Source of the DNA: Bacilli bacterium | Lineage (GTDB): Bacteria > Bacillota_I > Bacilli_A > RF39 > UBA660 | Length of the DNA stretch: 64,000 nucleotides | Assembly (NCBI GenBank): GCA_017442305.1 | Contig: JAFRZY010000001.1 | Span: 2,632-66,631, forward strand | Direction: 5' to 3' | Part shown: one piece after another, positions 36,244-52,857 of the stretch | Layout: each line of letters starts with the position of its first letter | Position numbering within the stretch: position 1 is the first letter of the stretch | The notes under the pieces: model-generated | The model's input: only the letters and a program-made list of their open reading frames with translations | Database searches by the model: none | Told to the model about the DNA's origin: nothing | Program-made: the position numbers and the translations under genes

Positions 36244-39200
36244 AAAAAATCTTAAAAGCTGTATTGGTTGTATTTACTTTTGTTTGCGTTACAAATGTTA
36301 ATGCAGCAAACATTATTGATAAAGGAAAATATGATACTGGTTTAGATTATGGTTTTTCCGGAAAAGGAACTAGTGGTGGCGGTTATGATATGCCAGCAAC
36401 ATTAAGAAAATATATTCTACAAAAAGATGGAAAAGAATATAGTGCATTTTGTATGGACGTTACATACAAGCCAGTAAGTGATAGTCAATCTGTTTCTTGT
36501 ACTAAGATGGCAATAAATTCTGCTTACAATGCAGGTTTGATTGCGATTGGTAAAAATGGTTATAATATAAAAACTCAAACATCAAATACAATTAATGGGA
36601 TTACGGTAAGTGGTGATAATTATTACAGTGCAACAAATATTGCATTACGTTTATATAAAATGGCAATGGGAAATGCCAAGACCGATAACTCTTATGCAAG
36701 TATGTCCGCTGATTATAACTATAGTATGTTAAATACTGCTGTTGATTGGATGTATAGTAATTTTGAGTTATTTAAAAAAGCAACGGGATACACAGGTAAG
36801 AAAGATAAAAGTGAATTGTTTAAATATACTGGGTTATCAGGTACCGCTGCTATAGGTCAAAATACTCAATATGCAAAAACTACGGATCATCATGATAACA
36901 AAATGTCTGATAATTTCTATACTTTAAGAAGTGCTGATAGTTCAGTTTACAAAGCTGCAAAGGAATTATTTAAAATAGGTTTAGAAGAGGCTGCAGCTTA
37001 CAGAAGTAATCCTACAGCGTATAAAGAAAAATATAATGATAATACTGACGGTAAAAAAGCTAGTATTGTAGTTTCTAATATAAATAATAATAGTAATTCA
37101 TCGGTTGCAGGTGGAACATCTTCAAGACAAGATAATAATACTCATTTAGTAAGTTTAGATTATGTTACTATAGAATTAAAAGATTTTACTGCAACCGATA
37201 AAATTAGTGACATTTCAATAAGTTGTATTAATTGTAGTGAAGTTGCAAGAGGTACTGCTTCTGTTGCGATTTCAAGATATTCATTAGACGGAGGAAATAC
37301 TTATATTAATGGTGCTCCAACAAATGATAAATTAAATGGTTTAACTGGTAATAAAAAAATAGTGTTAGAAATCACTACTAAAGTAAAAAAAGATAATCTT
37401 TATAGTTGTGATGATATTAAATTCAAAGTATCTTACAACTCAAATTTAACAAGTTCGACAAACTCATCAGAGGATGATTCGAATATAAAAGGTATTTATA
37501 GTTGTTTAGCAGCTAATAAACCAGGAGATCATCAAGAATTTTATCAAATTGAAGCATGGCCTAATGAATCAGCAACTAATCCTGATGAGAATCCTGGAGG
37601 TACTGATGGTAGTCCTGCATCAGCTTCAAAAGAATTTAAGGTTAATTTCTGTCCGCCTACTGGTTCTTGTATTGCAAAAGATCCTGCTACTATGACTGAT
37701 GAAGAAAAACAAGAATGCTGTGATGAATGGGAAGATGCATGTGTAAACGGTAACAATTATTGTACATATGTTGGAGAATATTGTGTTACATGTGATACTA
37801 AAATTGATCATCCTACAGCTTGTACCGATTTTGATGATGCTGGTGTATCTGAAGGAGAAGTAGTAGAAGCTTTAGATGAAAATGGTAATGATAATACTAA
37901 GCTTTGTCTATTAATGCGAAAAAAAGATGAAGCGGGTAATAGCATCTTAAGCAGTTCAAATAGCTATTGTGAGATATATTGTAAAGAAGAATTTAAATAT
38001 AATCTTCCGGGAGCTGTATCTATAAATAGTGGTACATATTTCCAATTAGAAGCTACAATAACAGGTACTAAGAGTTGTTATACTTCAAAAATAGATACAA
38101 ATAAATTTAAAACGGATTTAGAAGCCCTTAAGGCCGATAAAGATGCTGGTAGAATTTCAGCCGCCGAATATAATACTAAACGTGATGATGTTGTAAAACA
38201 ATATAATTCTTGTGTCAATTTAGATGAAGAATATAGTTGTTTTGAACCAAAGATAAAGTATGAATATGATGAATCTTATGATAACGGAATTAATGAAGGT
38301 AGTAAGGAATTTACTCGTACTAATGTTACAGTATCTAATGACGAAACTGAATATTGTACTGGTGAAGTAAATGATAGTTATGCTTGTCAAGGTTCTAATA
38401 GAAAAGGAACTATAACAATAAATGGTGTAACATATAGTACTGCAGATTATGTAAAGACTACTATTACTAAAACTGCTAATTATAAAACACCATCAGTGTT
38501 CTATACAAAGACTCCGACTGGTGCTATAGTTTCACAAGAAGAGTATGATCGTTTAGCTGAAAGTCAAAAAAATAATTATAATAAAATAGATGGTTTACCT
38601 GTATCAATTAAAACTGAAAGTGGAAATCATAAGTTTACTTTAACATTATCGAATGTTGGAGAATTCTATGCATTAAGTAAACCTGGAGCTTGTGTAACAG
38701 GTAGATTAATCGGTGCAGATAATAGTGTTTTTGATAAAAATAAAAATACAAAAGCAGAGTATGATTGTAAGTACTTTGTAAATTGTCCAGAGTGTGATTT
38801 TGATTGTGTTGGACCTTTATGTAATATTGAAACATGTGATGGACCAAATTGTGTTCCTACATGTATAGGTTATGGATGTGCTTATACTAATGGTGGTTTA
38901 AGCTATGCTTACAGAACTATTTCTTTAGTTAACTTAAATCCAACTAATAGAGAACTAGGTTATAACTGGAATACTAATAGTTCTAAGAATAAAGCTGCTG
39001 CTAAAGCAACTGCAGCAATTACTGAAATTACTGGAGAAAAAGAAGATATTTATGAAGATGAACCAATATATTCATTTAAGATTACGCCAGCTTTACAAAG
39101 AAAAATTAAAGAATATAATAAAACTCAACTTAATAAAGGTGGATTTGCAAATGAATCATTAGTGTGTGAAGATTACACATACAACGGTAAAACTTATGAA

Positions 39201-39374
39201 AATGTTAATTGTAAAAGTACATTTATCGAAGATTTAAATAGTGGAGAATTTGCAAACAATGTTGTTGTTCCTTCTGAAAAGAGTAAACCAACATTTACTA
39301 ACTGGTTTGAAAGTGACTATTGTCAAAATAATGTTTGTACAACAGGAAAAGGAATAGGACCTTCATATAAATAG
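36240..39374 (+). CDS. 1044-aa Cys-rich secreted protein (candidate adhesin / pilus-associated protein or substrate)
   Basis: Signal peptide ...VNA/ANI. Many Cys residues, including CPECDFDCVGPLCNIETCDGPNCVPTCIGYGCAY (38782..38884). No LPXTG and no TM. Confidence 0.55.
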   Translation: MKKILKAVLVVFTFVCVTNVNAANIIDKGKYDTGLDYGFSGKGTSGGGYDMPATLRKYILQKDGKEYSAFCMDVTYKPVSDSQSVSCTKMAINSAYNAGLIAIGKNGYNIKTQTSNTINGITVSGDNYYSATNIALRLYKMAMGNAKTDNSYASMSADYNYSMLNTAVDWMYSNFELFKKATGYTGKKDKSELFKYTGLSGTAAIGQNTQYAKTTDHHDNKMSDNFYTLRSADSSVYKAAKELFKIGLEEAAAYRSNPTAYKEKYNDNTDGKKASIVVSNINNNSNSSVAGGTSSRQDNNTHLVSLDYVTIELKDFTATDKISDISISCINCSEVARGTASVAISRYSLDGGNTYINGAPTNDKLNGLTGNKKIVLEITTKVKKDNLYSCDDIKFKVSYNSNLTSSTNSSEDDSNIKGIYSCLAANKPGDHQEFYQIEAWPNESATNPDENPGGTDGSPASASKEFKVNFCPPTGSCIAKDPATMTDEEKQECCDEWEDACVNGNNYCTYVGEYCVTCDTKIDHPTACTDFDDAGVSEGEVVEALDENGNDNTKLCLLMRKKDEAGNSILSSSNSYCEIYCKEEFKYNLPGAVSINSGTYFQLEATITGTKSCYTSKIDTNKFKTDLEALKADKDAGRISAAEYNTKRDDVVKQYNSCVNLDEEYSCFEPKIKYEYDESYDNGINEGSKEFTRTNVTVSNDETEYCTGEVNDSYACQGSNRKGTITINGVTYSTADYVKTTITKTANYKTPSVFYTKTPTGAIVSQEEYDRLAESQKNNYNKIDGLPVSIKTESGNHKFTLTLSNVGEFYALSKPGACVTGRLIGADNSVFDKNKNTKAEYDCKYFVNCPECDFDCVGPLCNIETCDGPNCVPTCIGYGCAYTNGGLSYAYRTISLVNLNPTNRELGYNWNTNSSKNKAAAKATAAITEITGEKEDIYEDEPIYSFKITPALQRKIKEYNKTQLNKGGFANESLVCEDYTYNGKTYENVNCKSTFIEDLNSGEFANNVVVPSEKSKPTFTNWFESDYCQNNVCTTGKGIGPSYK

Positions 39375-39395: not shown

Positions 39396-39815
39396 ATGAA
39401 AGAATCATATTGGGGTTATTGGTTAATAGTTCTTGGTATTTTTGTTATAGTTGTAATGATGTTAATTTCAAATTTAACTTCTACTAATACGCAAGATTAC
39501 TATTTGATAAAAGAAATAACACAAGCTTCTATGTTAGATTCTGTAGATTATGCTTACTATCGTGAGTATGAAGAAGTAAAAATAAATAAAGAAAAGTTTG
39601 TGGAAAGTTTTATAAGAAGATTTACTGATTCAGCAACATTAAGTTCAACTTATGAAGTATCTTTTTATGAAATTTATGAAGCACCCCCAAAAGTAAGTGT
39701 TAAAGTTTCTAGTTCATCTAATACCTTTAATATAGCAGGTGATGCAGAATCATTTGATATTGTTAATAAATTAGATGCAATCCTAGAAATGGGTGTATTA
39801 AAGGTAGATAATTAG
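39396..39815 (+). CDS. Pseudopilin-like protein (paralog of the 44108 and 44603 genes)
   Basis: N-terminus MKESYWGYWLIVLGIFVIVVMMLIS matches the MKE[AS]..G + hydrophobic helix pattern of the downstream pilin and pseudopilin genes. Confidence 0.45.
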   Translation: MKESYWGYWLIVLGIFVIVVMMLISNLTSTNTQDYYLIKEITQASMLDSVDYAYYREYEEVKINKEKFVESFIRRFTDSATLSSTYEVSFYEIYEAPPKVSVKVSSSSNTFNIAGDAESFDIVNKLDAILEMGVLKVDN

Positions 39816-39825: not shown

Positions 39826-40632
39826 ATGGGTAATTTAATGACAAATTTAAAAAAATTTATTAGTAATAAAAATACTGTTACTATATTAGGTGTAATATTA
39901 GGGGTAGTAGTTTTATATATCGGATATAATTATCGTGTAAAACAAGCTATAGAATTAGTTTCTATTCCTTATGCTACTCAAGCTATTGCTGGTAAGACTA
40001 AAATTACATCTGAAATGATTAGTACCGTTGAAGTAAATAGATCATTTTTAAGAAATAATCCTAATGTTATTACAGATATTAATAAATTAATAGATCAATA
40101 TGTTAATTATGGTATGCCTGTACCAAATGGAGCTTTCTTCTATACTGATCAAGTTGTAGCAGAAAAACAATTAAATGATTCAGCATTTAATGATATACCA
40201 GATGGCTATACAATATTTACTTTAAAGGTTGATTTACATACAACTTATGGTAATTCTATATACCCTGGTAATTATATAGATTTATATTTAAAAGCAATTG
40301 ATGATACTAATAGATTAATATATGGACAATTTATTACAAGTATCGAAGTATTGGCAGTTAAAGATAGTGCTGGAAATCATGTGTTTGAAGGTGCTTCAAC
40401 TGGTACTCCTGCAGAACTTTTATTTGCAGTACCAGACGAAATGTATAAATTGTTAATGAAAGCAGACTTATTAACATCAAATTCTATTGAAATAATCCCT
40501 GTACCTAGAAATGCTAGTTATACTTCTAATAAAGGAGAAACTAGTGTAACAAGTGAATATTTAAAGAATTTTATCTTATCTAAATCTGCGACAATCCCTG
40601 ATGAATTTGTAAATAATACAGTAACTGAATAA
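39826..40632 (+). CDS. cpaB: CpaB/RcpC-like pilus assembly protein (SAF domain)
   Basis: 268 aa. N-terminal TM, then VSIPYATQAIAGKTKITSEMIS, a SAF-like beta-clip. Position immediately upstream of the CpaF-like ATPase. Confidence 0.6.
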   Translation: MGNLMTNLKKFISNKNTVTILGVILGVVVLYIGYNYRVKQAIELVSIPYATQAIAGKTKITSEMISTVEVNRSFLRNNPNVITDINKLIDQYVNYGMPVPNGAFFYTDQVVAEKQLNDSAFNDIPDGYTIFTLKVDLHTTYGNSIYPGNYIDLYLKAIDDTNRLIYGQFITSIEVLAVKDSAGNHVFEGASTGTPAELLFAVPDEMYKLLMKADLLTSNSIEIIPVPRNASYTSNKGETSVTSEYLKNFILSKSATIPDEFVNNTVTE

Positions 40633-40646: not shown

Positions 40647-41768
40647 GTGAGATTTGTGAATGATGCTATATTTTCACAAATAGACTTTGGACCAATTAAA
40701 GAATTTTTAGAACAAGACAATATAACCGATATTTCCTACAGTAATGGTGGTCAAATATGGTTAAAGTCTTTGGATAAAGGTGTTTATAAAGTTGAGCGTC
40801 CAGAAATAAATAATGCGTTAATCGAAAAATTAGCTTTTCAATGTTCTAATGTAATGGGTAAGACATTTAATATGGCTCATCCATTCTTAGATGCTGAAAG
40901 TGCAGAATTACGTTTAAATTTTATTCATGACTCCATTGCAACCAATGGAGTAGCTCTAGTTATACGTAAAACTCCGGCTAAAATAAGATTAAATAAAGAA
41001 AAATTATTAAATGAAAAGTATGTTACTGAAGAACTTTTGAATTTCTTATTACTATGTGTTCGTGCTCATTGCAACATAATTGTAAGTGGTGAAACTGGTT
41101 CCGGTAAAACAGAATTAGTAAAATACCTAGCTAGTCATACACTAGAAAACGAAAAAATTATTACTATTGAAGATACCTTAGAGTTACATTTAGATAGAAT
41201 TTTTCCGCATCGTGATATTGTAGCTATGAAGACAAATAATATTGCTGATTATTCTGATGTGTTAGTAACATGTATGCGTCAAAATCCACGTTGGATTTTA
41301 CTTTCGGAAGTTCGTAGTGCAGAAGCAGTTATGGCTGTAAGAAACTCAATTTCTTCAGGGCATAATATTATTTCAACAATTCACTCTGATAGTGCTGCTA
41401 ATATACCAATGCGTATGTATAGTTTGCTTGAATCGAATTTAGACATTGACCAATTCTTAAAATCAATTCATCGTTATGTACAATTAGGAATTCATGTAAA
41501 AGGTTATATGAGTAAAGAATTAGGTCGATTCCAAAGAGAGATTGTCGAAGTGACAGAATTTTATGTTGATGAAGAAAATAAAGCTGGTCATAATACAATA
41601 TTTAAAAAAGGCTTAGATGGAAAAATATGTTTTAAAAATCCATCTAAATATATTAGAAATTATATGGGGGCTCAAGGAGTAGATGTTCCTGAAATAGTAT
41701 TTAAGGAAACTATTAGTGCAGAGGATAATACTACGTCAGATTATATAAATGAAATAGAAACTTTATAA
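40647..41768 (+). CDS. tadA: CpaF/TadA-family secretion ATPase
   Basis: Walker A SGETGSGKTE, IEDTLEL (Asp box), MRQNPRWILLSEVRSAEA, His box GHNIISTIHSDSA. An alternative GTG start at 40656 is better spaced from SD agaggtga. Confidence 0.85.
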   Translation: MRFVNDAIFSQIDFGPIKEFLEQDNITDISYSNGGQIWLKSLDKGVYKVERPEINNALIEKLAFQCSNVMGKTFNMAHPFLDAESAELRLNFIHDSIATNGVALVIRKTPAKIRLNKEKLLNEKYVTEELLNFLLLCVRAHCNIIVSGETGSGKTELVKYLASHTLENEKIITIEDTLELHLDRIFPHRDIVAMKTNNIADYSDVLVTCMRQNPRWILLSEVRSAEAVMAVRNSISSGHNIISTIHSDSAANIPMRMYSLLESNLDIDQFLKSIHRYVQLGIHVKGYMSKELGRFQREIVEVTEFYVDEENKAGHNTIFKKGLDGKICFKNPSKYIRNYMGAQGVDVPEIVFKETISAEDNTTSDYINEIETL

Positions 41769-41781: not shown

Positions 41782-42675
41782 GTGGAACTTATTATATTAT
41801 TAGCTATAACAATATTTGTCATTACTTATAGAAAAAACACTGGCGAAAATGTTTATAAATTTTTTGTTTCGCAAGTGTCTAATATGTATGAAAAATATGC
41901 TCCTTATAGTTTTAAAACAGTTAGAGAAAAAACTAAAGAATTAGGACAAGAATACACTACTAAACAATATACTATTCAAGTTGTTTTATTTGCTGCTATA
42001 GGTGGCGGTATTGCTTATATGTATTTTTATAGTATTATATGGGCTTTAATATATGCATGCATTGCAGTTGCATTTATCCCATATCTAGCGTATTTAAGAT
42101 GCCAAAGAGTTTATAGTGAATATATATTTGAACAAATTCAGGTATATACAACAAATGTAATAATGGAATTTAATACAACTCAAAGTTTTGTTAAGTCTTT
42201 AGAGGGAGTTAGAGATTCAGGAATTTTAGAAAATCCTGTATTAGATGATGTAAAAACTATGATTGAGATGTCATATCAAAATGGTACGATAGATGAATCC
42301 ATTGAATTTTTCAATAGTAAGTACCCTTATTATATGGTAAAAAATATGCATCAATTATTTTTACAAATCACTAAAGAAGGTGCAAGAGATTCAGGAGAGT
42401 CTTTAGAAAACATGTCAATGGATATCGACGCTTTGGTTGAAGGTGTATATCGTGATCAAATGGATCGTAAAAATTTCCATAAAAGATTTATTACTTTTGG
42501 TCTTGTATTATTCTTCTTAGTAATGGTTATGCAATTTTTACTTGGAAGAGAAAGTTATATTGAATTACTAGACTTATGGTATGTAAAAATTATATTGCAT
42601 GCAATAATTATTATAAATAGTTATTTCCTTATCACTGGTGAAAAATATTATAATGAAGATGTGGGGGGAGAATAA
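41782..42675 (+). CDS. tadB: TadB-like T2SS-F-family platform protein
   Basis: 297 aa. N-terminal TMs, ~130-aa cytoplasmic helical domain, C-terminal TM pair. Follows the ATPase gene. Confidence 0.6.
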   Translation: MELIILLAITIFVITYRKNTGENVYKFFVSQVSNMYEKYAPYSFKTVREKTKELGQEYTTKQYTIQVVLFAAIGGGIAYMYFYSIIWALIYACIAVAFIPYLAYLRCQRVYSEYIFEQIQVYTTNVIMEFNTTQSFVKSLEGVRDSGILENPVLDDVKTMIEMSYQNGTIDESIEFFNSKYPYYMVKNMHQLFLQITKEGARDSGESLENMSMDIDALVEGVYRDQMDRKNFHKRFITFGLVLFFLVMVMQFLLGRESYIELLDLWYVKIILHAIIIINSYFLITGEKYYNEDVGGE

Positions 42676-43463
42676 TGTATTTAGAAATTATTATTATTGG
42701 TATTATTGTTATTTTCTTAATGGTTTATACTGGGCGAATTAATTCTAATAAGTTTTTTTCAGATAATGAAGTATATTTAAGAAAATTAAAAGAAGAAGAT
42801 TGGGATTTCTATGTAAAAGCTAAATATGGTGATAATGTTAATTCTGATATTCTATTTAATAGAAGAATCCGTAATGGAGTGATGATAGCCGCGTTAGTAC
42901 TATGTTTAATGCTTGGTAATTTAAGTTATATTACTTTTCTATTTGCTATTATTGTAGGTTTCTTCACTTTTAAATTAGATTATATTAATATTAAAAGTTA
43001 TTATAAGAAACATCTACATCAAATAGATGCTATGCTACCGCATTATTTAAAAAGTATAGAAATTTTAATACAACACTATACAGTACCGGTAGCTATTGGT
43101 AAATCAATGAATGATGCTCCAGCAATATTTAAAGATGGACTTCAAGAATTAATAAATGAAATTAATGCTGGTAATGATACTATTGAACCTTATATGAATT
43201 TTGCTAAAACATATCCGGTAAGAGATTCAATGCGTATGATGCGTTTATTATATCGTTTGAGTTTAGGACGCCAAGAAAGAAAGCAAGAACAATTACTAGC
43301 TTTTTCAAGATCAATTTCAAATTTGCAACAAAAAGCTAGGGAAACCAAATATAAAGAAAGACTTGAAAAAATGGAAAGTAAGACCATGGCAATGTTGATA
43401 ACTACCGGTTTAGGGGTTATGATATTACTTATCTTAGCTGTTCTATTAATAATGAATGTTTAA
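42675..43463 (+). CDS. tadC: TadC-like T2SS-F-family platform protein
   Basis: 262 aa with the same topology class. TAATG overlap with the TadB-like gene. Confidence 0.6.
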   Translation: MYLEIIIIGIIVIFLMVYTGRINSNKFFSDNEVYLRKLKEEDWDFYVKAKYGDNVNSDILFNRRIRNGVMIAALVLCLMLGNLSYITFLFAIIVGFFTFKLDYINIKSYYKKHLHQIDAMLPHYLKSIEILIQHYTVPVAIGKSMNDAPAIFKDGLQELINEINAGNDTIEPYMNFAKTYPVRDSMRMMRLLYRLSLGRQERKQEQLLAFSRSISNLQQKARETKYKERLEKMESKTMAMLITTGLGVMILLILAVLLIMNV

Positions 43464-43572: not shown

Positions 43573-43836
43573 ATGAAGGAAGCAACTGGAGAATTAAATA
43601 TGACAGTTATAACAGTAGTGGCTATTGCAGCAGTAGGAGCATTCTTTTACGCATTTGTATGGCCTGCTATAAAAGGAAATATTACTAGCTCTACTAGATG
43701 TGCTAATGCTGTATGTACAAGTTGTTCTACTGCTAATGGAAGAAGAAGTTGTACTGGATGTTCGTTTGATACAAATGGAGATGGAGTAGTTTCAGGTACT
43801 GATGAAACTGGTTTTTCTTGCACATATAACGATTAA
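43573..43836 (+). CDS. Small pilin-like protein 1 (Cys-rich head)
   Basis: 87 aa. MKEATGELNMTVITVVAIAAVGAFFYAFVW, then a 6-Cys C-terminal domain. SD aaaggagg. Confidence 0.6.
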   Translation: MKEATGELNMTVITVVAIAAVGAFFYAFVWPAIKGNITSSTRCANAVCTSCSTANGRRSCTGCSFDTNGDGVVSGTDETGFSCTYND

Positions 43837-43849
43837 TTAGGTGATATAA

Positions 43850-44092
43850 ATGAAAGAGGCTACAGGAGAACTAAATATGACAGTAATTGTATTAACGTTG
43901 GTAGGGCTTCTAATAGCTCTTTTCTTTTATACTGTCTGGCCAATGTTAAGAGGAAATTTTGTTAGTGAAACAAATTGCAGTAAAGCAATTTGTGAACCTT
44001 GTCCTAGTATTGCAGGAAATACTTGTAAAACTAGGGTATGTCATATGCCAGGCGATGAAGCTAATACATTTGAATGTGTTAATAAAGGATAA
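43850..44092 (+). CDS. Small pilin-like protein 2 (Cys-rich head)
   Basis: 80 aa. The first 13 residues are identical to pilin 1 (MKEATGELNMTVI) despite synonymous nucleotide differences. 6 Cys in the C-terminal part. Confidence 0.6.
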   Translation: MKEATGELNMTVIVLTLVGLLIALFFYTVWPMLRGNFVSETNCSKAICEPCPSIAGNTCKTRVCHMPGDEANTFECVNKG

Positions 44093-44107
44093 AAGTAGGT
44101 GATATAA

Positions 44108-44593
44108 TTGAAAGAAGCAATAGGTGGTAATTGGTTATTTAATATTGTGATTTTTTTCGTTGTATTGTTTACTGGGTATTTATGTCTATCAATTAATCAT
44201 ACAAAGGCGTTTAATGTAAAAGACGATATAGTTAAAATTATTGAGCGTGAAAATGGATTTGAAGATTTAAGTGCTGTTAGTTCTTTGCATGATAAAAAAA
44301 TAATAAATGATATAGTTGATAGTTTACAAACTTTTGGATATCGTAATACTAGTGTTTGTCCTGTTAATGAATCAGGAACTACATGGTATGGCTTTGATAG
44401 AGAAGGAAACAGAGATCATAGTAACAGGAATTCGGCTTTTTGTATTCGAAAAATAGATGTTTCTAAGAATAGAGATGATGCACCTGATACTGGATATTAT
44501 CAAGTTGTTGTTTTCTATCAATTAGATTTACCAATATTTAATAGTTTATTTAATTTTAATATAAAAGGCGATACTAAGCTTTTATATAGGTAG
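44108..44593 (+). CDS. Pseudopilin/TadE-position protein
   Basis: 161 aa, TTG start. MKEAIGGNWLFNIVIFFVVLFTGYL. Paralog of the 44603 gene (shared FCIRK/YCIRK and F.I.G C-terminal strands). Confidence 0.5.
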   Translation: MKEAIGGNWLFNIVIFFVVLFTGYLCLSINHTKAFNVKDDIVKIIERENGFEDLSAVSSLHDKKIINDIVDSLQTFGYRNTSVCPVNESGTTWYGFDREGNRDHSNRNSAFCIRKIDVSKNRDDAPDTGYYQVVVFYQLDLPIFNSLFNFNIKGDTKLLYR

Positions 44594-44602
44594 GGTGAAT
44601 AT

Positions 44603-45079
44603 ATGAGAGAATCAATAGGAACCACATGGATTTTACAATTGGTAATAGTGTTTATTTTATTGTTTGTTAGTTTTTTAACTCTTTCATTAAATTATTCGAA
44701 AGCTTATAAAACTAAAAATGAAATGTTAAGTATAATAGAAAAGTATGAGGGATTAAATTCTGATTCTATAAAAATTATTAATAATTATTTAAGTTACAAT
44801 AATTATAAAGTTAAAAGCAAATGCCCGACTGATGGTATTTGGTATGGGCAAACAGATATATCTGGTAATAATGGAGTGTTAGAGCAAGCCGTTTCTAATC
44901 AAGAATATTATTATTGTATTCGAAAAAGAAGTTCGAATAGATATCATTATTACCATTTTTACGAAGTAAAAGTTTTCTTGACTTTTAATTTACCTGTTTT
45001 TGGTGATTTTGCTAAATTTACGATAAACGGGTCTACCGCAGATGTATTAACAAAAGATACATATACTGCATCAAATTAA
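44603..45079 (+). CDS. Pseudopilin/TadF-position protein
   Basis: 158 aa. MRESIGTTWILQLVIVFILLFVSFL. Paralog of the 44108 gene. Confidence 0.5.
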   Translation: MRESIGTTWILQLVIVFILLFVSFLTLSLNYSKAYKTKNEMLSIIEKYEGLNSDSIKIINNYLSYNNYKVKSKCPTDGIWYGQTDISGNNGVLEQAVSNQEYYYCIRKRSSNRYHYYHFYEVKVFLTFNLPVFGDFAKFTINGSTADVLTKDTYTASN

Positions 45080-45090: not shown

Positions 45091-46089
45091 ATGAATGTTA
45101 TAGTATCAAATAAGTTTCAACCATTACTTGCTACTTTAGATATTGATTTAATAAAAAGTATTAATGGTGAATTTACACCATCAGAATTAGCAAGTCAATT
45201 TAGTAATTTTTTCTTTAATAAGATGGTTTTAGATATTACAGCAATTAAAGATTATATGGATATTACTGTAATTCAAGAATTATCAGTTTCTATCGATATG
45301 AATAAAATAGTATTATTATTAGATGATTCTGAAATTGTTAATTCGCCAACTTATTTGTCACAACTTGTATCGATGGGTATTTATAATTTTACTAGAAGTA
45401 TTGATGCTGTTAAGTTTTTAATTGATAATCCTAATTCATATAAAGATGTAGCAAGTTATCATAATTTAAATAATACATATATTCCTACAGCTAGTACTGG
45501 AGATGGTGCTGTAAATCCTGTTCAGCCTATGGGATTAAGAGTTATTGGATTTAAAAATATTACTGAACATGCAGGGGCTACAACTTTGGTATATATGTTA
45601 AAGAAAAACTTGGAAAGAATGTATCAAGTAAAGGCAGTAGAAGTTGATAAACATGATTTTACATATTTAAATGATAAATCATTAGAATGTACAACAGCTG
45701 CAGATTTACCTGCTTATATAGCAAAAAATCAAAATAAAGAAGTAATTTTAGTTGATTTAAATGAAGAAGGTTCAGAAGGTGCTTGTTCTGAGGTTATTTA
45801 TTTAATTGAACCTGGATTAATAAAATTAAATAAATTAATAAGAAGAGATCAAGCGATTTTTGATAAATTAAAAAGCAAGAAAATAGTTTTAAATCGTAGC
45901 ATATTATCTAATAAGGATGTAGCAGATTTTGAATTTGAAAGTAGAAGTAGAGTATTCTTTAATATTCCTTATTTAGATGATAAGAAAGATTATCAAAAAG
46001 TATTAGATGACTTTTTGGCAGCATTAGGATTTTCTAGATTAAAAGATTCTGGTGACAATAAGAGTAAACTATTTAACATTTTCAAGTGA
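45091..46089 (+). CDS. TadZ/CpaE-like ParA/MinD-fold protein with a degenerate P-loop
   Basis: 332 aa. N-terminal receiver-like region. RVIGFKNITEHAGATTLVYML (45538..45600) occupies the position of the KGGxGxTT deviant Walker A. Confidence 0.5.
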   Translation: MNVIVSNKFQPLLATLDIDLIKSINGEFTPSELASQFSNFFFNKMVLDITAIKDYMDITVIQELSVSIDMNKIVLLLDDSEIVNSPTYLSQLVSMGIYNFTRSIDAVKFLIDNPNSYKDVASYHNLNNTYIPTASTGDGAVNPVQPMGLRVIGFKNITEHAGATTLVYMLKKNLERMYQVKAVEVDKHDFTYLNDKSLECTTAADLPAYIAKNQNKEVILVDLNEEGSEGACSEVIYLIEPGLIKLNKLIRRDQAIFDKLKSKKIVLNRSILSNKDVADFEFESRSRVFFNIPYLDDKKDYQKVLDDFLAALGFSRLKDSGDNKSKLFNIFK

Positions 46090-46150: not shown

Positions 46151-46531
46151 ATGTTAATTATGGCAGGTGCAAATCAATTTTGTGCAGATACTTGGGAAAT
46201 TTGGCAATTTGTTGGTTATATTTTAATGATCTTTAAAATCGTAATTCCTCTATTATTATTAATCTTAGGAATGTTTGATTTAGGAAAGGCTGTAGTTGCT
46301 AGTGATGATAAGGCTATTAAGAAAGCAACTACTCAACTTGCATATCGTGCAGTTGCTGCAATCGTTATTTTCTTTGTTCCAACAATAATTGGTTTTGTAT
46401 TCTCAATTGTTAATGGATTTAATAATGATGCTGCAGTAAAAGCTAATTATACAAAATGTAAAGATTGTTTAGTTTCACCTACAAATAATACTAAATGTAA
46501 TGGTAATGCTGTAGTAATTAATGCTAACTAA
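46151..46531 (+). CDS. VirB2/TrbC/Maff2-like two-TM hairpin protein (candidate T4SS pilin-like subunit)
   Basis: 126 aa. Two hydrophobic helices separated by the polar loop DLGKAVVASDDKAIKKATTQ. Monocistronic, between a consensus promoter and a terminator. Confidence 0.5.
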   Translation: MLIMAGANQFCADTWEIWQFVGYILMIFKIVIPLLLLILGMFDLGKAVVASDDKAIKKATTQLAYRAVAAIVIFFVPTIIGFVFSIVNGFNNDAAVKANYTKCKDCLVSPTNNTKCNGNAVVINAN

Positions 46532-46563
46532 TATCATTTAGAGTTTTAAGAGTGTTATTTCTA

Positions 46564-46599
46564 AAAAGAGATGGAATTTTATTTACCATTTCTTTTTTT
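46564..46599 (+). terminator. Rho-independent terminator
   Basis: AGAGATGG (46567..46574) / CCATTTCT (46586..46593, one G-U pair) plus a T-run. Confidence 0.55.
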
Positions 46600-46642
46600 A
46601 ATGTTATAATTATTCTGTATATTATAGTGTCAGAGGTGTAAG

Positions 46643-47866
46643 ATGAAAAAAAGTTTTATATATTTATTTATAACATTATTATTATTTGTTAGTTTTTCTA
46701 GTTTGGTTAATGCTGCGCTTCCACTTCCTGGGGAAACATTTACTCCTCCTGCTGGATCGCAACAAGTTGTTTGTAATATAGGATATACCGATGGTTTACT
46801 TTATGATCAAGATTGGCATTTTATAATTACAAATATTTGTAAAGCAGAAAAACAATTAAATGAATGGAAATATGATTGCTCAAATGTTAATCTTGCTTGG
46901 TCAATAAAATACGGTGGTGTTTATATATGTCCTGCTACTGGATGTACGGATGTTTATAATGCTAATTCAGGTGGGATAGGTTTGGATTCTCTATTTTCAA
47001 ACAGTAACTTTGTAAATTTATATGCAAATGATGATAGCACAAATAAAGATTTATATACAAATTCAGAACTAAAGAATATTTTAACCTCAAAGAAATGTCC
47101 GAGTTATATTTATATAGCAACTAATCCGACAAATCAACATTTAGGTTTTATATTTTCGTCTTCGCCTGTAAATAATGCCAGTCAAATATTTAAAAATTCT
47201 GGTTATAAAGTTGAGTTTATGTCTGAAAATGCTGGAGAAGATTTATCTGCAGTTAATAAAACTAATTTTGAAAATCATCTAAAAAAAATGAAAGATAATA
47301 TCCAAAAATTTAAAGATAATGATTGGGGAAATGTTTATTCTGAAGAATGTTCAAAATTTGGTGTGTTTGGAGGTATTTTTCACATTGGAACTGGGGATTA
47401 TACAGAAAATACAACTTTAAAATATTATGAAAAATACAAAGAAGAATTACAAAAATCGGATTCGAGTTATAATTTCACGGAAGCAGATTCGTTATTTGAT
47501 GAATACAAAACAAAATATGTTTGTGCACCAAAACCTATTGATACTGGTGAAATAAATGAAATAAAATTAAATAGGGTAACTTGTGAAACTTTGTTTATGA
47601 ATGGATCTGAATATAATGATACTTGGAAGTTATTGAGCACAACTTTAAAATTTATGCAATATATGGCTGTTACACTTGCTTTAGTGCTATCAATAGTAGA
47701 TTTTATAAAAGTTGTTCCAACTAATGATAAAGATGCTATAAAAAAGTCTGCATTCAAGGCTGTAACTAGGGTAGGAATAGCTATTGTGATATTTTTTGTG
47801 CCAATAATTTTAGATTTTATTTTGGAGTTAGTTGGCTTTAGTAATCCAACTTGTGGATTAATATAA
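46643..47866 (+). CDS. Secreted ectodomain fused to a VirB2/Maff2-like C-terminal hairpin
   Basis: 407 aa. Signal peptide ...LVNA/ALP. C-terminal FMQYMAVTLALVLSIVDFIKVVPTNDKDAIKKSAFKAVTRVGIAIVIFFVPIILDF aligns to the 46151 protein. Confidence 0.5.
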   Translation: MKKSFIYLFITLLLFVSFSSLVNAALPLPGETFTPPAGSQQVVCNIGYTDGLLYDQDWHFIITNICKAEKQLNEWKYDCSNVNLAWSIKYGGVYICPATGCTDVYNANSGGIGLDSLFSNSNFVNLYANDDSTNKDLYTNSELKNILTSKKCPSYIYIATNPTNQHLGFIFSSSPVNNASQIFKNSGYKVEFMSENAGEDLSAVNKTNFENHLKKMKDNIQKFKDNDWGNVYSEECSKFGVFGGIFHIGTGDYTENTTLKYYEKYKEELQKSDSSYNFTEADSLFDEYKTKYVCAPKPIDTGEINEIKLNRVTCETLFMNGSEYNDTWKLLSTTLKFMQYMAVTLALVLSIVDFIKVVPTNDKDAIKKSAFKAVTRVGIAIVIFFVPIILDFILELVGFSNPTCGLI

Positions 47867-47890
47867 TAGAATAATAGGATGTGATATTTT

Positions 47891-50137
47891 ATGTGGAAAT
47901 CAATTGAGGTAGGTTTAGTTAGACTACTATTGTTAATTGATTCTGTTATTTATGGATTTGTAGCTGATTTGTTTGAAATATTTGTTGAGTTAGCGAATGC
48001 AAGTAGTAAAATATTTACTGAGTCTGCGATTTCTTCCTTTGCCAATAGGATTTATGTTATAGTTGGGGTGGTAGCTTTATTTATTATTTCTTATCAGCTA
48101 ATAAACGCAATTATAAATCCAGATAATTTAACAAAAGGTAATAATTCTGGTGCTAAATTAGTTATGAATTTAGTAACATCAATTGTATTAGTGGCTTTAG
48201 TTCCTACTATATTTAATTATGCTTATAAGCTGCAAGATGTAATTTTAAATGATAATATCGTAGGTAAAGTATTTTTAGGAAATTTTTCAAATCAAGAAAA
48301 TTTGATTAACACAGATACTGGTGAAGTTATTGATAATTCGTATGTTGTAAAACAATATGGCTCACAACTTTCGTGGTCTGTTTTAAATGCTTTCTTTTAC
48401 ACAACTAATGAAGATTTATATACATCATGGAGTCCTTGGGGGGAATATAAGACAATTTCTGATGGCGTTAATTTTGTTGCTTGTGGTGGTGCTATACTTT
48501 TGGTAATTGGTTCTGGGGTAGCGACTTATTTTTCTGCTGGGGCTGCATCTGGAACTATTCCTACATCGGTTGGGGTAGCTGTAGCAGCTTGTGGCGCAAC
48601 GACTGTTAATAGCTTAGTTGCAAATACCGGTCATTTAATAACTTCTGATACTATTTATTGGAAAGGAATGACTGCTGTAGCACAATTAGGAGATTTTGGA
48701 TTAATTACTGCTTTTGCGGAAGAGATACTGAATGGTAATGTAATATATATGCCAATAATTTCTACAATAGTGGGGTTGATTTTATTATACATGATTTTCA
48801 GTTATTGTTTGGATTTGGGGTTGCGTGCAGTGAAATTGGCTTTTTATCAAATGATTGCTCCTATCCCAATATTTTCTAGAATAATTCCAAATAATAAGAT
48901 ATTTAATAATTGGATAAGATTAACTTTAACAACATTCATGGAAGTTTTCATAAGAATGATAGTTTTATTTACTGTAATATTTTTATCTTCTAATATAGGA
49001 GAATTAAATATTCCGGGTGGTCTATTAGTGAAAATGATTATAATTATGGGAATCGTTACTTTTGCGAGACAGGCTCCTAAATTAATTAGTGACTTAACTG
49101 GTATTGATAGTGGAAATATGAAGCTTGGTATTATGGAAAAATTAGGTGCAGGTGGTGCTTTGGCCGCTGGTGCGCTAATAGGTGGTGGAATAACTGCCGG
49201 AGTTAAGAATTTTACTAATAGCTGGAGAAATACAAATGGAAACAGATGGCAAAAACTTGGAGCTGGTTTAAAAAGTGGATTTGCTGGTACAGTATCTGGA
49301 GGTGTTAGAAGTGCCAAAGGAGCTGGTTTTAAAGCAAAAAGTTGGGGCGATATGAAAAACGCCGCTTCTGCGGGTAGTAAAGCTGCTCATAACAAATCTA
49401 AAGATAGAGCTGCTTATAAAGCATCGCATGGCGGAACTTTAGGCGGAGTTATTAAAGGTCATGCAAGTGACGCTTGGTCAGGAGTTAAGAATTGGGCTGG
49501 TGTTACTAGTGGTGTTCTTGAAAAAGTTGATTATCAAGAGGAATATTTAGCAGGATTTGATGATTATAAGTCTCTTTATAATAATGGATCATATCAAGCT
49601 ATGGAAGCACAATTAAATCAATATGAAGCTCGTATTGCAGCTGAGGGAGGAAGTGCTGAAACTTATAGTGGTTCAGGTATTACTTTAGATAGCGCACGTA
49701 AGTCGTTAGAGGAACAAATGCGTTTGAAAAGATTGGAAGCAATTGAAAAGAATACAGATGGGGCAGCATACACTATGTATAATTTAGCAATGCAAGTTAG
49801 AAATAATCAGGCTTTAGCTGCTGCAGCTGGAGTAGATCCAAACTTTATTAAAAATGCTGATGATTTTGAATTAAGAAACGGTAAAATTTATCATAAAAAT
49901 GGTGGAACAGTTTGGACTCATGAAGAATTACAAAAATTGTTAGAAGGAAGAGTTGCAACGCATGATCCGGTAACAGGAAAGATTAATGGAGATATTAATG
50001 ACCCTACTACTAAGATGTATGGAATGTCTAAAGGTTTGGGTGAATCTAAAAAAGATGTTGCAAAAGACAAAAACCAAACAAAAAGAAGTATTGCTTATAA
50101 AGAAGCTAAGAAAGCTAAAGATAGTCAAAAATCTTAG
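47891..50137 (+). CDS. VirB6/TcpH/PrgH-like polytopic T4SS channel protein
   Basis: 748 aa. About 7-8 TM helices in the first ~430 aa, a Gly/Lys/Trp-rich segment, then a soluble C-terminal domain. Position is upstream of the VirB3- and VirB4-like genes. Confidence 0.55.
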   Translation: MWKSIEVGLVRLLLLIDSVIYGFVADLFEIFVELANASSKIFTESAISSFANRIYVIVGVVALFIISYQLINAIINPDNLTKGNNSGAKLVMNLVTSIVLVALVPTIFNYAYKLQDVILNDNIVGKVFLGNFSNQENLINTDTGEVIDNSYVVKQYGSQLSWSVLNAFFYTTNEDLYTSWSPWGEYKTISDGVNFVACGGAILLVIGSGVATYFSAGAASGTIPTSVGVAVAACGATTVNSLVANTGHLITSDTIYWKGMTAVAQLGDFGLITAFAEEILNGNVIYMPIISTIVGLILLYMIFSYCLDLGLRAVKLAFYQMIAPIPIFSRIIPNNKIFNNWIRLTLTTFMEVFIRMIVLFTVIFLSSNIGELNIPGGLLVKMIIIMGIVTFARQAPKLISDLTGIDSGNMKLGIMEKLGAGGALAAGALIGGGITAGVKNFTNSWRNTNGNRWQKLGAGLKSGFAGTVSGGVRSAKGAGFKAKSWGDMKNAASAGSKAAHNKSKDRAAYKASHGGTLGGVIKGHASDAWSGVKNWAGVTSGVLEKVDYQEEYLAGFDDYKSLYNNGSYQAMEAQLNQYEARIAAEGGSAETYSGSGITLDSARKSLEEQMRLKRLEAIEKNTDGAAYTMYNLAMQVRNNQALAAAAGVDPNFIKNADDFELRNGKIYHKNGGTVWTHEELQKLLEGRVATHDPVTGKINGDINDPTTKMYGMSKGLGESKKDVAKDKNQTKRSIAYKEAKKAKDSQKS

Positions 50138-50157
50138 TTTAGAAAGGATAAAAAGGA

Positions 50158-50460
50158 ATGAAAATGTATTTAATACCTGCCAATTCTAAGAAGTCTCAAT
50201 TGATTTTGGGCTTCTTTACCCCATTTGATTTAGTGGTATTTGGAATTGGAGCAATTATAACAATTATTTTGTTGTTGGTAATAAGAAGTTCAGATTTAAC
50301 TGTAATGATATTGATACTTTTACCGTTATTAATATCTACTTTGTTAGTTATGCCTGTTGTTTATTATCACAATGTAATGCAATTGTTAACAAATATAATT
50401 ATGTTTTTTATAAATAGACGAAGGTATTATTGGAAAGGCTGGTGTATTAATGAAGAATAG
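50158..50460 (+). CDS. VirB3/PrgI/TcpE-like small 2-TM protein
   Basis: 100 aa. Two TM helices. Immediately precedes and overlaps the VirB4 N-terminal-domain ORF. Confidence 0.5.
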   Translation: MKMYLIPANSKKSQLILGFFTPFDLVVFGIGAIITIILLLVIRSSDLTVMILILLPLLISTLLVMPVVYYHNVMQLLTNIIMFFINRRRYYWKGWCINEE

Positions 50461-51001
50461 TAAGGAAAGTTCTTTTACAGAAGATTGGTTACCTGTAAAA
50501 CAAATAATAAACGGGATGATTTTGACAGATGATGGTTATTATGTAACGGGGATTAAAGTTGCGCCTAAAAACATCTTCATTATGGATAGTGTTGCGCAAG
50601 ATGCAATTGTTAATAATTTAACAAATGTTTATAACATGTTAGATTTTGAATTTTGGTTGATGATTGCAGATAGACCTGTAGATTTAAGTGTTTATTTAGC
50701 GCAAATGCAAATGTTATATAATGATTCTAGTGATGCTTTAGAAAGAAAGCTAATTATGCAAGATATTAATAAAGCTAATATGTTTATGAGTAGTGAATAT
50801 AATGTTGTTGATACTGAATATTATATCTTGTTTAAAGAAAAGAAAATGGAATTAGTCCAAAAGAAACTACATAATTTAATTAGTGGTTTTGCAAGTTGTG
50901 GTTTAAATTCAACACAAACTTCAAATTCAGATTTAAGAATGATATTAGATAATTTCTTAAATGGTGGGGTTAGTACTACAGTTGGGACGGTGATGCCATA
51001 A
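50450..51001 (+). CDS. VirB4 N-terminal domain encoded as a separate ORF
   Basis: 183 aa. EDWLPVKQIINGMILTDDGYYVTGIKVAPKNIF resembles the N-termini of Gram-positive VirB4/TraE/Orf16-type ATPases. The stop overlaps the next ATG (TAATG at 50999..51003). Confidence 0.5.
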   Translation: MKNSKESSFTEDWLPVKQIINGMILTDDGYYVTGIKVAPKNIFIMDSVAQDAIVNNLTNVYNMLDFEFWLMIADRPVDLSVYLAQMQMLYNDSSDALERKLIMQDINKANMFMSSEYNVVDTEYYILFKEKKMELVQKKLHNLISGFASCGLNSTQTSNSDLRMILDNFLNGGVSTTVGTVMP

Positions 51002-52785
51002 TGGCCTTAAAGAGTGAAGTAGCACCTAAAGGTATGCAATTTAATGCAACAGATTTCATAATAAGTGGAAAATATTCTACAATTATGACAATTGTAACTT
51101 ATCCAAAAAATATTTATCCGGGTTATTTATCTGATTTAACAAGTTTAAGTGGTGTTAAAGTTGTTGTTAAACATATTCCTATTCCATTTAGTACTTTACA
51201 AAAAATGCTAAATAAAGAAATTGCTGATTTAAAAGCGCGTTATCAAACAGAAAAGGATTTAACATTTCAAGAAAAAATTCGTCAAGATTATGAATCCTTA
51301 GAACAGTTTATTTCAATGCTTGCTGCAACACAAGCAAGAATTTATGATTTTCAATTACATATAATGATTTCTGGGGATAATAAAGAAGAATTAGAAATGC
51401 GTAAGATGCAAGTTCGTAGCCATTTAGAAGCTATGGGTATGCGGGGAGTGTCATTAATGTTTGAACAGGAGAAAGTGTTAAAATCAATTCTACCGATTTT
51501 CCCTAAACAAGATATTGAAGATAGAATTGGTACTCCGGTTCCATCCGTTACAGTATCAGCGATGTATCCATTTGTGTTTGATAGTGTAAAAGATCCAGGT
51601 AATTCTATGTTATTTGGTGTGGATTTTTCCGGTGGAGTTGTATTATTTAATCAATTCTTATATCAATTAAAAAAAGAGCATAATAGAAATAATGCTAATA
51701 TGATTCTTTTAGGTACTTCTGGTACTGGTAAATCTACAGCAGCAAAATTATTAATTAGAAGTCATTTAAGAAATGGTTATAAAGTTGTATGTATTGACCC
51801 AGAAGGTGAACTTGGTGAAATGGTTAATAATATGGGCGGTAATTTCTTAGATTTAGGAAAAGGTGGAGAATATGGTATGATTAATCCACTTGAAGTAATT
51901 GTTGATGCTGATGAAGAGGAAATTGCTCAAGGTTTAGGTTATACAATTCTTACTCGTACGTTACAACAGTTAAAAGCATTTTTGAAATACTATTCACCTA
52001 GTATTGAGGAAGATGTACTTACAATGTTTAGTGAAGTAGTTCAAGATACTTATAAACGTTATAAAATAGATTTTGATACAGATTTTACAAAATTTACAAG
52101 TGCTGATTTTCCAACATTTGATGATGTTTATGCAACAATTAAAGGAAGATTGCTTTCAATGGTTGATGCAACTCACGAAAGAGATGTAATGGAAAGATTA
52201 GAATTAAAAATCAGACCACTAGTTAAAGAATTACGTTATTACTTTACAGGTCATACAACATTAGATATTGATAGTGATTTTATTGTGTTTAATATCAGAG
52301 AATTAATGAATAGCGATGAAAACATTAAAAATGCATTGTTCTTTAATATATTAAAATATGCATGGGGTGAATGTTTAGATAAATCTGTTAATACAGTAAT
52401 GATGGTTGATGAAGCGCATGTACTTCTATCTAGTCATAATGAATTAGGTGCGGAATTCTTAGCCCAAATTCAAAGACGTAGTAGAAAATATAATACTGGT
52501 ACAATCATAATTACTCAACAACCTACAGATTTTGCTGCTCCAAATATAATTACTCATGGTAAAGCAATATTTGATAATGCTGCTTATTATCTAGTAATGG
52601 GATTAAAAAAACAAGCTGTAGAAGACTTGTCTAAATTAATAGATTTAAATGAATCTGAAAAAGAAGGTATTAAATATTATAATCAAGGTGAAGCATTGTT
52701 TATTTGCGGAAGCCGTAGAATGAGAATAAATATAGTAGCCACTCAAGAAGAATTAGATTCTTTTGGTACAGGTGGTGGATTATAA
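51001..52785 (+). CDS. virB4: VirB4-family T4SS ATPase (C-terminal 594 aa)
   Basis: Walker A LLGTSGTGKST, Walker B VMMVDEAHVLL, downstream IIITQQP. The N-terminal part YSTIMTIVTYPKNIYPGYLSDL is typical of VirB4. Confidence 0.85.
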   Translation: MALKSEVAPKGMQFNATDFIISGKYSTIMTIVTYPKNIYPGYLSDLTSLSGVKVVVKHIPIPFSTLQKMLNKEIADLKARYQTEKDLTFQEKIRQDYESLEQFISMLAATQARIYDFQLHIMISGDNKEELEMRKMQVRSHLEAMGMRGVSLMFEQEKVLKSILPIFPKQDIEDRIGTPVPSVTVSAMYPFVFDSVKDPGNSMLFGVDFSGGVVLFNQFLYQLKKEHNRNNANMILLGTSGTGKSTAAKLLIRSHLRNGYKVVCIDPEGELGEMVNNMGGNFLDLGKGGEYGMINPLEVIVDADEEEIAQGLGYTILTRTLQQLKAFLKYYSPSIEEDVLTMFSEVVQDTYKRYKIDFDTDFTKFTSADFPTFDDVYATIKGRLLSMVDATHERDVMERLELKIRPLVKELRYYFTGHTTLDIDSDFIVFNIRELMNSDENIKNALFFNILKYAWGECLDKSVNTVMMVDEAHVLLSSHNELGAEFLAQIQRRSRKYNTGTIIITQQPTDFAAPNIITHGKAIFDNAAYYLVMGLKKQAVEDLSKLIDLNESEKEGIKYYNQGEALFICGSRRMRINIVATQEELDSFGTGGGL

Positions 52786-52786
52786 G

Positions 52787-52816
52787 GGACTTAACAATTG
52801 TTAAGCCTTTTTTTTT
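52787..52816 (+). terminator. Rho-independent terminator
   Basis: CTTAAC AATT GTTAAG palindrome plus a T9 run. Followed by an extended -10, TGATATAAT. Confidence 0.6.
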
Positions 52817-52857
52817 GTGATATAATTTTTACAGAATTATAAATAGTGGTGATAATT

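Follow-up and report, generated by a model that had tools for sequence, protein, structure and literature searches.

What are five proteins that begin alike, continue into a hydrophobic helix and carry no established prepilin cleavage pattern, and how might they be matured in a locus that encodes no prepilin peptidase? The question is raised by a 64,000-nucleotide stretch of DNA from a Bacilli bacterium (positions 2,632 to 66,631 of contig JAFRZY010000001.1, assembly GCA_017442305.1; hereafter the window, meaning this whole stretch, in whose coordinates positions are given). A first-pass annotation of the letters had proposed that the five share a non-canonical leader, MKE[AS]xG, and may form a new pilin class processed by an enzyme that is either encoded in trans or of a different kind. 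Our analysis points to filament subunits of a divergent, Tad-like type IV system, encoded on the chromosome of low-GC gut Bacilli and cleaved in trans by an A24 peptidase; we assign this reading as a whole a probability of roughly 0.5. Its two parts differ in strength: the five proteins are very probably subunits of a type IV filament-like machine, and their cleavage after Gly6 by an unlinked A24 enzyme is close to an even bet. What we describe is a known kind of system, a Tad-like type IV filament, in a new variant form and not a categorically new one.

The shared N-terminal motif is real and is no effect of chance or of gene calling. We scanned all six frames of the 64 kb for [MLVI][KR][ED][AS] at an ATG, GTG or TTG codon with at least 60 aa downstream. 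M-[KR]-[ED]-[AS] at a start codon occurred five times, in precisely the five flagged open reading frames (ORFs), and in all five a hydrophobic stretch of ~20 residues followed directly; because the scan returned these ORFs and no others, chance can be set aside. Their starts are fixed by upstream stop codons and good ribosome-binding sites. The five are two tandem major-pilin-like proteins (pilins 1 and 2), two minor-pilin-like proteins of 161 and 158 aa (minor subunits 1 and 2) and a DUF5411 protein, each with a single N-terminal hydrophobic segment. Pilins 1 and 2 are identical over their first 13 residues, yet 7 of these 13 codons differ, all synonymously (AAG/AAA, GAA/GAG, GCA/GCT, ACT/ACA, TTA/CTA, GTT/GTA and ATA/ATT); overall identity is 58% over residues 1-31 vs 30% over the rest, and both carry 6 Cys, all in the C-terminal head. 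These translations agree with the ORFs and N-termini described in the first-pass annotation, the protein at 44108 beginning at TTG, and they bear out its observations on the synonymous codon differences and on the six Cys per head. Proteins 100% identical to the 161-aa protein and to the DUF5411 protein are on record from a 'Bacilli bacterium' metagenome-assembled genome (MAG) under the locus tags IJN03_00225 and IJN03_00190 respectively.

Pilin 1 belongs to a large family. Its relatives form 2164 clusters at 90% identity, and a profile search returned 692 clusters at 50% identity, with the match beginning at residue 1 in 149 of the 150 matches listed (the one exception begins at Met10, probably a mis-called start). 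In species-representative genomes, one per species, there were at least 599 pattern matches, of which at least 559 were confirmed. Residues 1-31 of the family are almost invariant (consensus MKEATGELNMTV[VI]TVVAIAAV.AFFYAF[VI]WP), mean pairwise identity being 88% in this part vs 35% in the head. Examined position by position, M1, A4, G6, E7, L8 and N9 were invariant in 120 close relatives; Ser6 occurs in a few distant representatives of the 50% clusters. Major type IV pilins are characterised by an N-terminal helix that is conserved and a head that varies, and on this pattern we class the 80-87 aa proteins as major-pilin-like. Their heads (window 43690-43833 and 43960-44089) follow a family pattern, 4 or 6 Cys being found in 248 of 268 relatives with the commonest spacing C-x4-C-x2-C-x8-C-x2-C-x10-14-C, i.e. 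two CxxC pairs. As judged from this spacing, the head could hold three disulfides, or a Cys4 metal site and one disulfide.

The motif also runs through the families of the other three proteins, in part more loosely. We found 179 relatives of the 161-aa protein, and M-[KR]-E-A-I-G-G is kept in 118 relatives, the motif continuing with [TN]-W. Relatives of the 158-aa protein and of the DUF5411 protein keep M-[KR]-[EQD]-[AST], and Gly6 not always: in part of the 158-aa family position 6 is Ser, Ala or Arg, in most of these cases with an Ala at 6 or 7, and DUF5411 proteins have W6-G7. Hence the common leader MKE[AS]xG holds in part, M-[KR]-[EDQ]-[AST] being strict and Gly6 not universal. The confinement of the motif to five ORFs of the window and its conservation in relatives argue for filament subunits.

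Carriers of the pilin family among the matches listed were all uncultured gut MAGs, from human, rodent, rabbit, chicken and ruminant sources, labelled Bacilli, Tenericutes, Mollicutes, Erysipelotrichaceae, or Candidatus Coprovivens, Ventrenecus or Caccenecus; NCBI places Candidatus Coprovivens among the Bacilli incertae sedis. Many MAG records with the locus (L007, L008, L012, L013, L018-L020, L022 and others of the related loci) are titled 'uncultured Muribaculaceae bacterium'. These titles, which refer to Bacteroidota, look wrong because the gene content and order match those of the low-GC Bacilli loci.

The subunit genes are embedded in a module whose gene order is conserved in 85 related loci and which, with its 12 genes, is kept in dozens of species-level genomes. 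Its order is a 251-aa protein, a Cys-rich protein of ~1000-1100 aa, the DUF5411 protein, a CpaB-like protein, a secretion ATPase, 297-aa and 262-aa membrane proteins, the pilins (one to three genes per related locus), the two minor subunits and a 332-aa protein. The nearest solved relatives of the ATPase are CpaF (2.3e-20), VirB11 (5e-16) and archaeal GspE2/FlaI (1e-15 to 1e-14); it scores under the cut-off of every NCBIfam subfamily, TadA and VirB11 included, and so forms a separate clade. The CpaB assignment, which draws on sub-cut-off scores to TIGR03177 (E 5.7e-8, 32 bits, cut-off 71) and PF16976 (E 6.8e-5, 23 bits, cut-off 28.8), is weak but consistent. A useful comparison is provided by the related locus L009, where a canonical Tad locus (15315-20156) lies ~3 kb downstream of the MKEAxG module and comprises Flp ('MGKRG/QALVEYILI'), two TadE-like genes, TadZ with KGGVGKT, a 487-aa CpaF, and TadB and TadC with T2SSF domains. 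The 297-aa protein has the transmembrane (TM) pattern of this T2SSF-positive TadB (hairpin 64-101, ~130 soluble residues, two TM segments) and the 262-aa protein that of TadC (hairpin, ~130 soluble residues, one C-terminal TM segment); on this topology the two would be the platform proteins of the machine. An ATPase nearest to CpaF, a CpaB-like protein and membrane proteins that mirror TadB and TadC all favour the filament reading. So does the arrangement of the pilins as two tandem paralogues with a promoter-like site of their own after a hairpin, both of which separate the pilin genes from the assembly genes; this suggests that the pilin genes are transcribed separately and at a high level.

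The remaining module genes are harder to place. The 251-aa protein, found in the same position in 35 related loci, has TM segments at 1-19 and 219-237 and no Pfam match. The 1044-aa protein likewise has no Pfam match; it contains many Cys clusters, e.g. CPECDFDCVGPLCNIETCDGPNCVPTCIGYGC, its relatives at the module head reach ~1800 aa, and it is a candidate adhesin or tip-associated protein. The 332-aa protein matched nothing in Pfam, NCBIfam or the PDB. It gave a weak local hhalign alignment to TadZ of L009 near a Walker-B-like region (pairwise E 0.008, probability 5%), and is possibly TadZ/CpaE-like. All features are listed in Table 1.

Table 1. Features of the filament module and its surroundings (window coordinates).
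Feature	Position	Strand	Remarks
Rce1-like CPBP intramembrane protease	34691..35425	-	PF02517 E 2.4e-15; divergent neighbour, membership of the module not shown
251-aa protein	35488..36243	+	Sec-type signal peptide and C-terminal membrane anchor; first module gene
1044-aa Cys-rich secreted protein	36240..39374	+	Sec signal peptide ending VNA/AN; kept in 44 loci
DUF5411 protein	39396..39815	+	139 aa, MKESYWGYW; fifth motif carrier, pilin-like architecture
CpaB/RcpC-like protein	39826..40632	+	One N-terminal TM segment, 11-29
Secretion ATPase, CpaF/VirB11/FlaI branch	40647..41768	+	373 aa; PF00437 T2SSE E 2.5e-29
297-aa polytopic membrane protein, putative TadB-like platform subunit	41782..42675	+	64-83% identical across loci
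262-aa polytopic membrane protein, putative TadC-like platform subunit	42675..43463	+	TM pattern as TadC of L009
Terminator-like hairpin with A-tract/T-tract	43462-43489	+	-12.9 kcal/mol, z -5.5
Promoter-like TTGATA-17-TATAAT	43513-43541	+	11/12 matches; consensus match only
Major-pilin-like protein 1	43573..43836	+	87 aa, starts MKEATGELNMTVI; MKEATG leader; ~25 hydrophobic residues ending W-P; head with 6 Cys
Major-pilin-like protein 2	43850..44092	+	80 aa, starts MKEATGELNMTVI; paralogue of pilin 1 with divergent head, 6 Cys
Minor-pilin-like protein 1	44108..44593	+	161 aa, TTG start, (M)KEAIGGNW
Minor-pilin-like protein 2	44603..45079	+	158 aa, MRESIGTTW; seen in 76 related loci
332-aa cytoplasmic protein	45091..46089	+	Last module gene; present in 83 loci
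Monoderm-type type IV secretion system	46151..58099 (also 59644-60762)	+	Strand given for 46151..58099; between housekeeping genes

Are the five proteins members of a described pilin family? With Pfam and NCBIfam, the Flp_Fap, TadE, N_methyl, ComG and archaeal class-III models gave no match to a window protein at E<=1 above noise, the sole weak pilin-type score in the window being that of ComGE to the DUF5411 protein (E 0.007, 16.5 bits vs a cut-off of 49). Specifically, the signatures IPR012902, PF07963 and TIGR02532 were not matched by the five, PF04964 (Flp/Tad pilins) and PF07811 (TadE/TadF) matched neither the five nor the relatives scanned, and the same two databases gave no pilin family match for 63 relatives of the minor subunit or 27 of the pilin. 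The DUF5411 protein itself was recognized by PF17424 with E 9.6e-58 (194 bits vs a cut-off of 30, profile positions 1-132). The motifs G/XXXXEY (Flp), G/xxxxE[FL] and G/FxxxE are absent from all five proteins. In L009, by contrast, the separate Flp and TadE genes of the canonical Tad locus do encode the Flp/TadE processing motif. The first-pass annotation had reported the Flp and G/FxxxE patterns as lacking, which proved correct, and had named placement by a profile hidden Markov model as the finding that would tell against a new class; we find that no pilin model matches. This supports the view that the five represent a pilin-like class that no current pilin profile recognises.

An AlphaFold2 (AF2) model of minor subunit 1, built with 63 relatives, reached a mean predicted local distance difference test score (pLDDT) of 86 and consists of helix 4-47, helix 60-76 and a four-stranded sheet. 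As modelled, this order of elements fits the pilin 'lollipop' of a long alpha-1 and an antiparallel beta-sheet; together with the conserved order of the 12 genes, it speaks for filament subunits. The DUF5411 model was of low confidence (pLDDT 64) and had the same element order, with helix 3-49, helix 65-79 and three strands. A Thermus competence pilin appeared in the Foldseek list for the minor subunit 1 model only at E 3.5, and a minor-subunit profile found no significant match among PDB sequences.

The lack of a profile or fold match to any pilin would also suit proteins that are not fibre subunits. The 80-87 aa proteins could instead be signal-anchored or Sec-cleaved Cys-rich secreted proteins, or membrane accessories of the type IV secretion system (T4SS) that adjoins the module: two CxxC pairs per head recall small metal-binding or disulfide-knotted peptides, and where the module is split (L014-L017, L027, L029 and L079), it is beside the T4SS, and not beside the ATPase genes, that the pilin, minor-subunit and 332-aa genes are found. 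We consider this very unlikely. No Sec signal peptide comes near the conservation of residues 1-31, the true Sec signals of the same operon differ and carry A-x-A-type sites, and the ~25-residue hydrophobic stretch ending in W-P has the length of a pilin alpha-1N. Moreover, the module also exists without any T4SS (L004 and L086), and its genes include those for a CpaF-class ATPase and a CpaB-like protein. We rejected a Sec-cleaved secreted peptide as the principal interpretation because the N-terminus is extremely conserved and because of how long the hydrophobic stretch is.

The next question is whether, and by what, the leader is removed. In the broad sense, a class III signal peptide has a hydrophilic leader whose last residue is Gly or Ala; 20-25 residues of mainly hydrophobic character follow, Glu5 being found 'often, but not always', and removal of the leader is required in all characterised type IV filaments (PMC10191384). 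By their residues, the five leaders fit this broad definition. This favours the filament reading, as does a precedent for an operon of DUF5411, CpaF and PilC/GspF (PMC9523054), and it qualifies the proposal of a new pilin class: the profiles do not recognise the proteins, but their leader falls within the accepted definition. If the cut fell after Gly6 (position -1), the first residue of the mature major pilin would be Glu (+1) and the fifth Thr (+5). Acidic residues are missing from +1 to +10 of the minor subunits, whereas Glu3 is common to all five. The leader of six residues has the length of a type IVa leader, e.g. MKAQKG.

No A24 peptidase is visible in the 64 kb, as had been stated from the letters: Pfam gave no match among the scanned window ORFs of at least 90 aa, the GxGD[x][KR] motif is not found in any frame of the window, and there is no unannotated polytopic candidate. 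A TadV/CpaA peptidase is not encoded in the module locus. Likewise, a motif scan of 86 sequences found no A24 peptidase, nor did Pfam in 34 proteins encoded in the flanks (22 multi-TM, <=480 aa) among the best 25 of 41 families. In monoderm systems comC is usually unlinked from comG, so a locus without its peptidase gene is ordinary. A conventional peptidase acting in trans is plausible in the L009 lineage because a canonical Flp locus exists there, and the coexistence of both systems in L009 marks the MKEAxG class as distinct from true Flp. Of the two processing enzymes that had been proposed, the trans-encoded one is thus plausible, and we regard an unlinked A24 peptidase as the most likely processor; for a different enzyme we found no positive support.

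Several observations weigh against a Tad-like filament with A24 cleavage. No fibre has been observed, and Foldseek of the minor subunit 1 model against the PDB returned nothing significant (best E 0.22). The 297-aa and 262-aa proteins have no T2SSF (PF00482) match in Pfam at E<=1 and no PDB profile match, and hhalign of the one against the other, and of both against TadB and TadC of L009, was not significant. There is no Glu at +5, and Gly6 is lacking in the DUF5411 protein and in some relatives of minor subunit 2. Neither the length nor the sequence of the leader varies, and major and minor subunits have it in common, which is unusual for a disposable segment. Finally, no A24 peptidase was seen in the window, nor in 80 related loci up to 10 kb from the pilin genes. 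Because Pfam, PDB and hhalign comparisons failed, we do not claim T2SSF homology for the 297-aa and 262-aa proteins; the match is one of topology alone.

Some of these points lead to the most interesting alternative, which the data allow: the subunits may be pilin-like and uncleaved, with M-[KR]-E-[AS] as the mature N-terminus and Glu3 neutralising charge as Glu5 does, so that no prepilin peptidase would be needed. The residues common to all five families are M1, [KR]2, [EDQ]3 and [AST]4, not Gly6; leader length is constant in 268 pilin relatives; an acidic residue after Gly6 exists only in the major pilin, Glu3 in all five; and the module, complete in its 12 genes, comes without a peptidase gene in 80 loci. 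We nonetheless judge this unlikely, since leader removal is needed by every characterised type IV filament (PMC10191384). Furthermore, Gly6 is conserved at 100% in the 120 close relatives of the major pilin and at ~98% in those of minor subunit 1, which is what a -1 residue should show, most variants without Gly6 have Ala or Gly at 6 or 7, and Lys and Glu, a charged pair at the alpha-1N tip, would sit buried in the fibre core.

Alternatively, a dedicated non-A24 enzyme may remove the leader, the candidate being the divergent CPBP (Rce1-like) intramembrane metalloprotease encoded on the opposite strand, its gene start 62 bp from that of the first module gene. EExxFR and FxxxH are intact in 19 of 19 homologues and HxxxN in 15 (degenerate or missing in the other 4). 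The gene adjoins the module in most loci with a visible upstream flank and lies immediately beside the pilin genes in loci without the assembly genes (L057, L066 and L084); an invariant MKEA leader, moreover, suggests a specific recognition partner. However, the adjacency is explained by wider vertical synteny. The genes for TyrRS, FtsW(-), PTS EIIB(-), CotZ, a metallophosphoesterase(-) and CPBP(-) lie upstream of the module both in the window (29861-35425) and in L086 (1-4824), which has no T4SS, and we have down-weighted the protease because this whole upstream block is syntenic in L086. In at least two loci (L008 and L012) another gene lies upstream of the module. To our knowledge, no CPBP protein processes pilins; titles and abstracts on 'prepilin peptidase' with 'CPBP' suggest no such link. 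We regard processing by this enzyme as highly improbable.

Returning to a Tad-like filament with A24 cleavage, we propose the following route of assembly. The subunits would insert N-in, C-out via the signal recognition particle and Sec. A conventional A24 peptidase encoded elsewhere would then remove the leader after Gly6 (Gly7 in DUF5411), giving a major pilin with Glu at +1 and not +5. Homology and gene order suggest that the CpaF-class ATPase, the TadB/TadC-like proteins and the CpaB-like protein extract and polymerise the subunits. The minor subunits and DUF5411 may prime or cap the fibre, to which the Cys-rich heads and the 1044-aa protein could lend variable surface and adhesive functions. 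From the linkage of the two clusters, the fibre probably works with the adjoining relaxase-less T4SS in cell-cell contact.

Among known systems, the machine is closest to Tad (Flp; type IVc), and the leader is closest in length to those of type IVa and Com pilins. With Tad it shares CpaF as nearest solved relative of the ATPase, a CpaB-like protein, two separate membrane proteins of TadB/TadC topology, and a compact operon in which small tandem major pilin genes precede two larger minor-subunit genes, as in flp-tadE-tadF. In contrast to Tad, the module lacks G/XXXXEY, is not matched by the Flp_Fap and TadE profiles, and has neither a TadV in its locus nor a recognisable T2SSF domain or TadZ; its leader is fixed at 6 residues, in contrast to the long, variable leaders of Flp, its pilins carry a ~50-residue Cys-rich head, and in L009 it sits beside a true Tad locus. 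Type IVa and Com pilins (G/FTLIE) resemble the module pilins in a six-residue leader with an M-K start and a Gly end, in a ~25-residue hydrophobic alpha-1N ending at Pro, in a conserved N-terminus with a variable, Cys-containing head, and in a peptidase that is often unlinked in monoderms. The end of alpha-1N lies at W-P, +24/+25, in the module pilins vs P22 in type IVa. Differences from type IVa and Com are Glu at +1 and not +5, the absence of Phe or Met at +1, the failure of N_methyl and TIGR02532 on the module pilins, and an ATPase that is not of the PilB/ComGA type.

The closest precedent is an operon of DUF5411, CpaF and PilC/GspF predicted computationally in Roseburia, Ruminococcus and Eubacterium (Miller et al., 2022; PMC9523054). 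There too, the DUF5411 gene is accompanied by genes for a CpaF-type ATPase, a platform protein in the membrane and a large surface protein. These systems belong to Clostridia and come from a computational prediction that described neither pilins nor a leader motif; the platform proteins of the gut Bacilli module, for their part, give no PilC/GspF match. The best 120 matches listed in our search for homologues of the DUF5411 protein were close relatives, and the Clostridia systems were not among them.

The pilin family is thus large, confined to uncultured small-genome Bacilli and unseen by curated pilin models, its parts being annotated 'hypothetical'. Recognition of the module gives these Bacilli a probable surface fibre and an apparatus for colonisation or cell contact. 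It also widens the sequence space of class III signal peptides to a Glu at +1 and an invariant leader common to major and minor subunits. Its usual position beside a Gram-positive-type T4SS makes it a test case for whether monoderm T4SSs can use a pilus. The far-reaching version is that these are the first type IV-like pilins to mature without A24, either uncleaved or trimmed by a dedicated enzyme such as the CPBP protease, in a fibre that would be the contact pilus of a relaxase-less monoderm T4SS on the chromosome of genome-reduced gut Bacilli; we think this combination unlikely. If maturation were indeed independent of A24, one of the rules that define type IV filament biology would have to be revised.

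The setting of the module is chromosomal. The window has ~28% G+C and encodes the housekeeping proteins ThrRS, LeuRS, TyrRS, TrpRS, FtsW, BacA and CotZ. A megablast search of 39000-47000 against plasmids and phages gave no match, nor did tblastn of the pilin and DUF5411 proteins against plasmids; a known mobile element was ruled out by this lack of plasmid and phage matches. Because the block upstream of the module is syntenic in distant relatives, the module appears to occupy a fixed chromosomal site and to be inherited vertically and not as mobile DNA.

The T4SS follows the 332-aa gene in 54 of 83 loci. In the window it encodes a PF18895-like pilin, VirB6/TrbL-like, VirB3-like and TraC-like proteins, VirB4, an M23 and lysozyme hydrolase, and the coupling protein VirD4, and no relaxase or integrase was detected with it. 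Relaxase-less T4SSs of the MPF-FATA type with arrays of VirB2-like (PF18895) pilins are known from Patescibacteria (PMC12102498). The likeness concerns the neighbouring cluster only, which has PF18895-like pilins, VirB6, VirB3, VirB4 and VirD4 homologues and no detected relaxase in common with them; no linked Tad-like module has been reported for the Patescibacteria systems (PMC12102498), and the host here is a low-GC member of the Bacillota.

Three further observations concern the proteins around the pilins. Other secreted proteins of the module and the adjoining T4SS are Cys-rich too, most clearly the 1044-aa protein and a 372-aa T4SS protein, and either arrangement of the Cys in the pilin heads would be notable outside the cell in organisms that are presumably strict anaerobes. 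On visual comparison, the 126-aa, 407-aa and 372-aa proteins of the T4SS have a common C-terminal two-TM 'T4SS_pilin' module and differing Cys-rich N-terminal parts. Finally, in 12 loci that lack the upstream assembly genes, a YfhO-family (GT-C-like) membrane protein of ~820 aa is encoded directly 5' of the pilin operon (e.g. L009 7441-9918 and L046 1672-4233).

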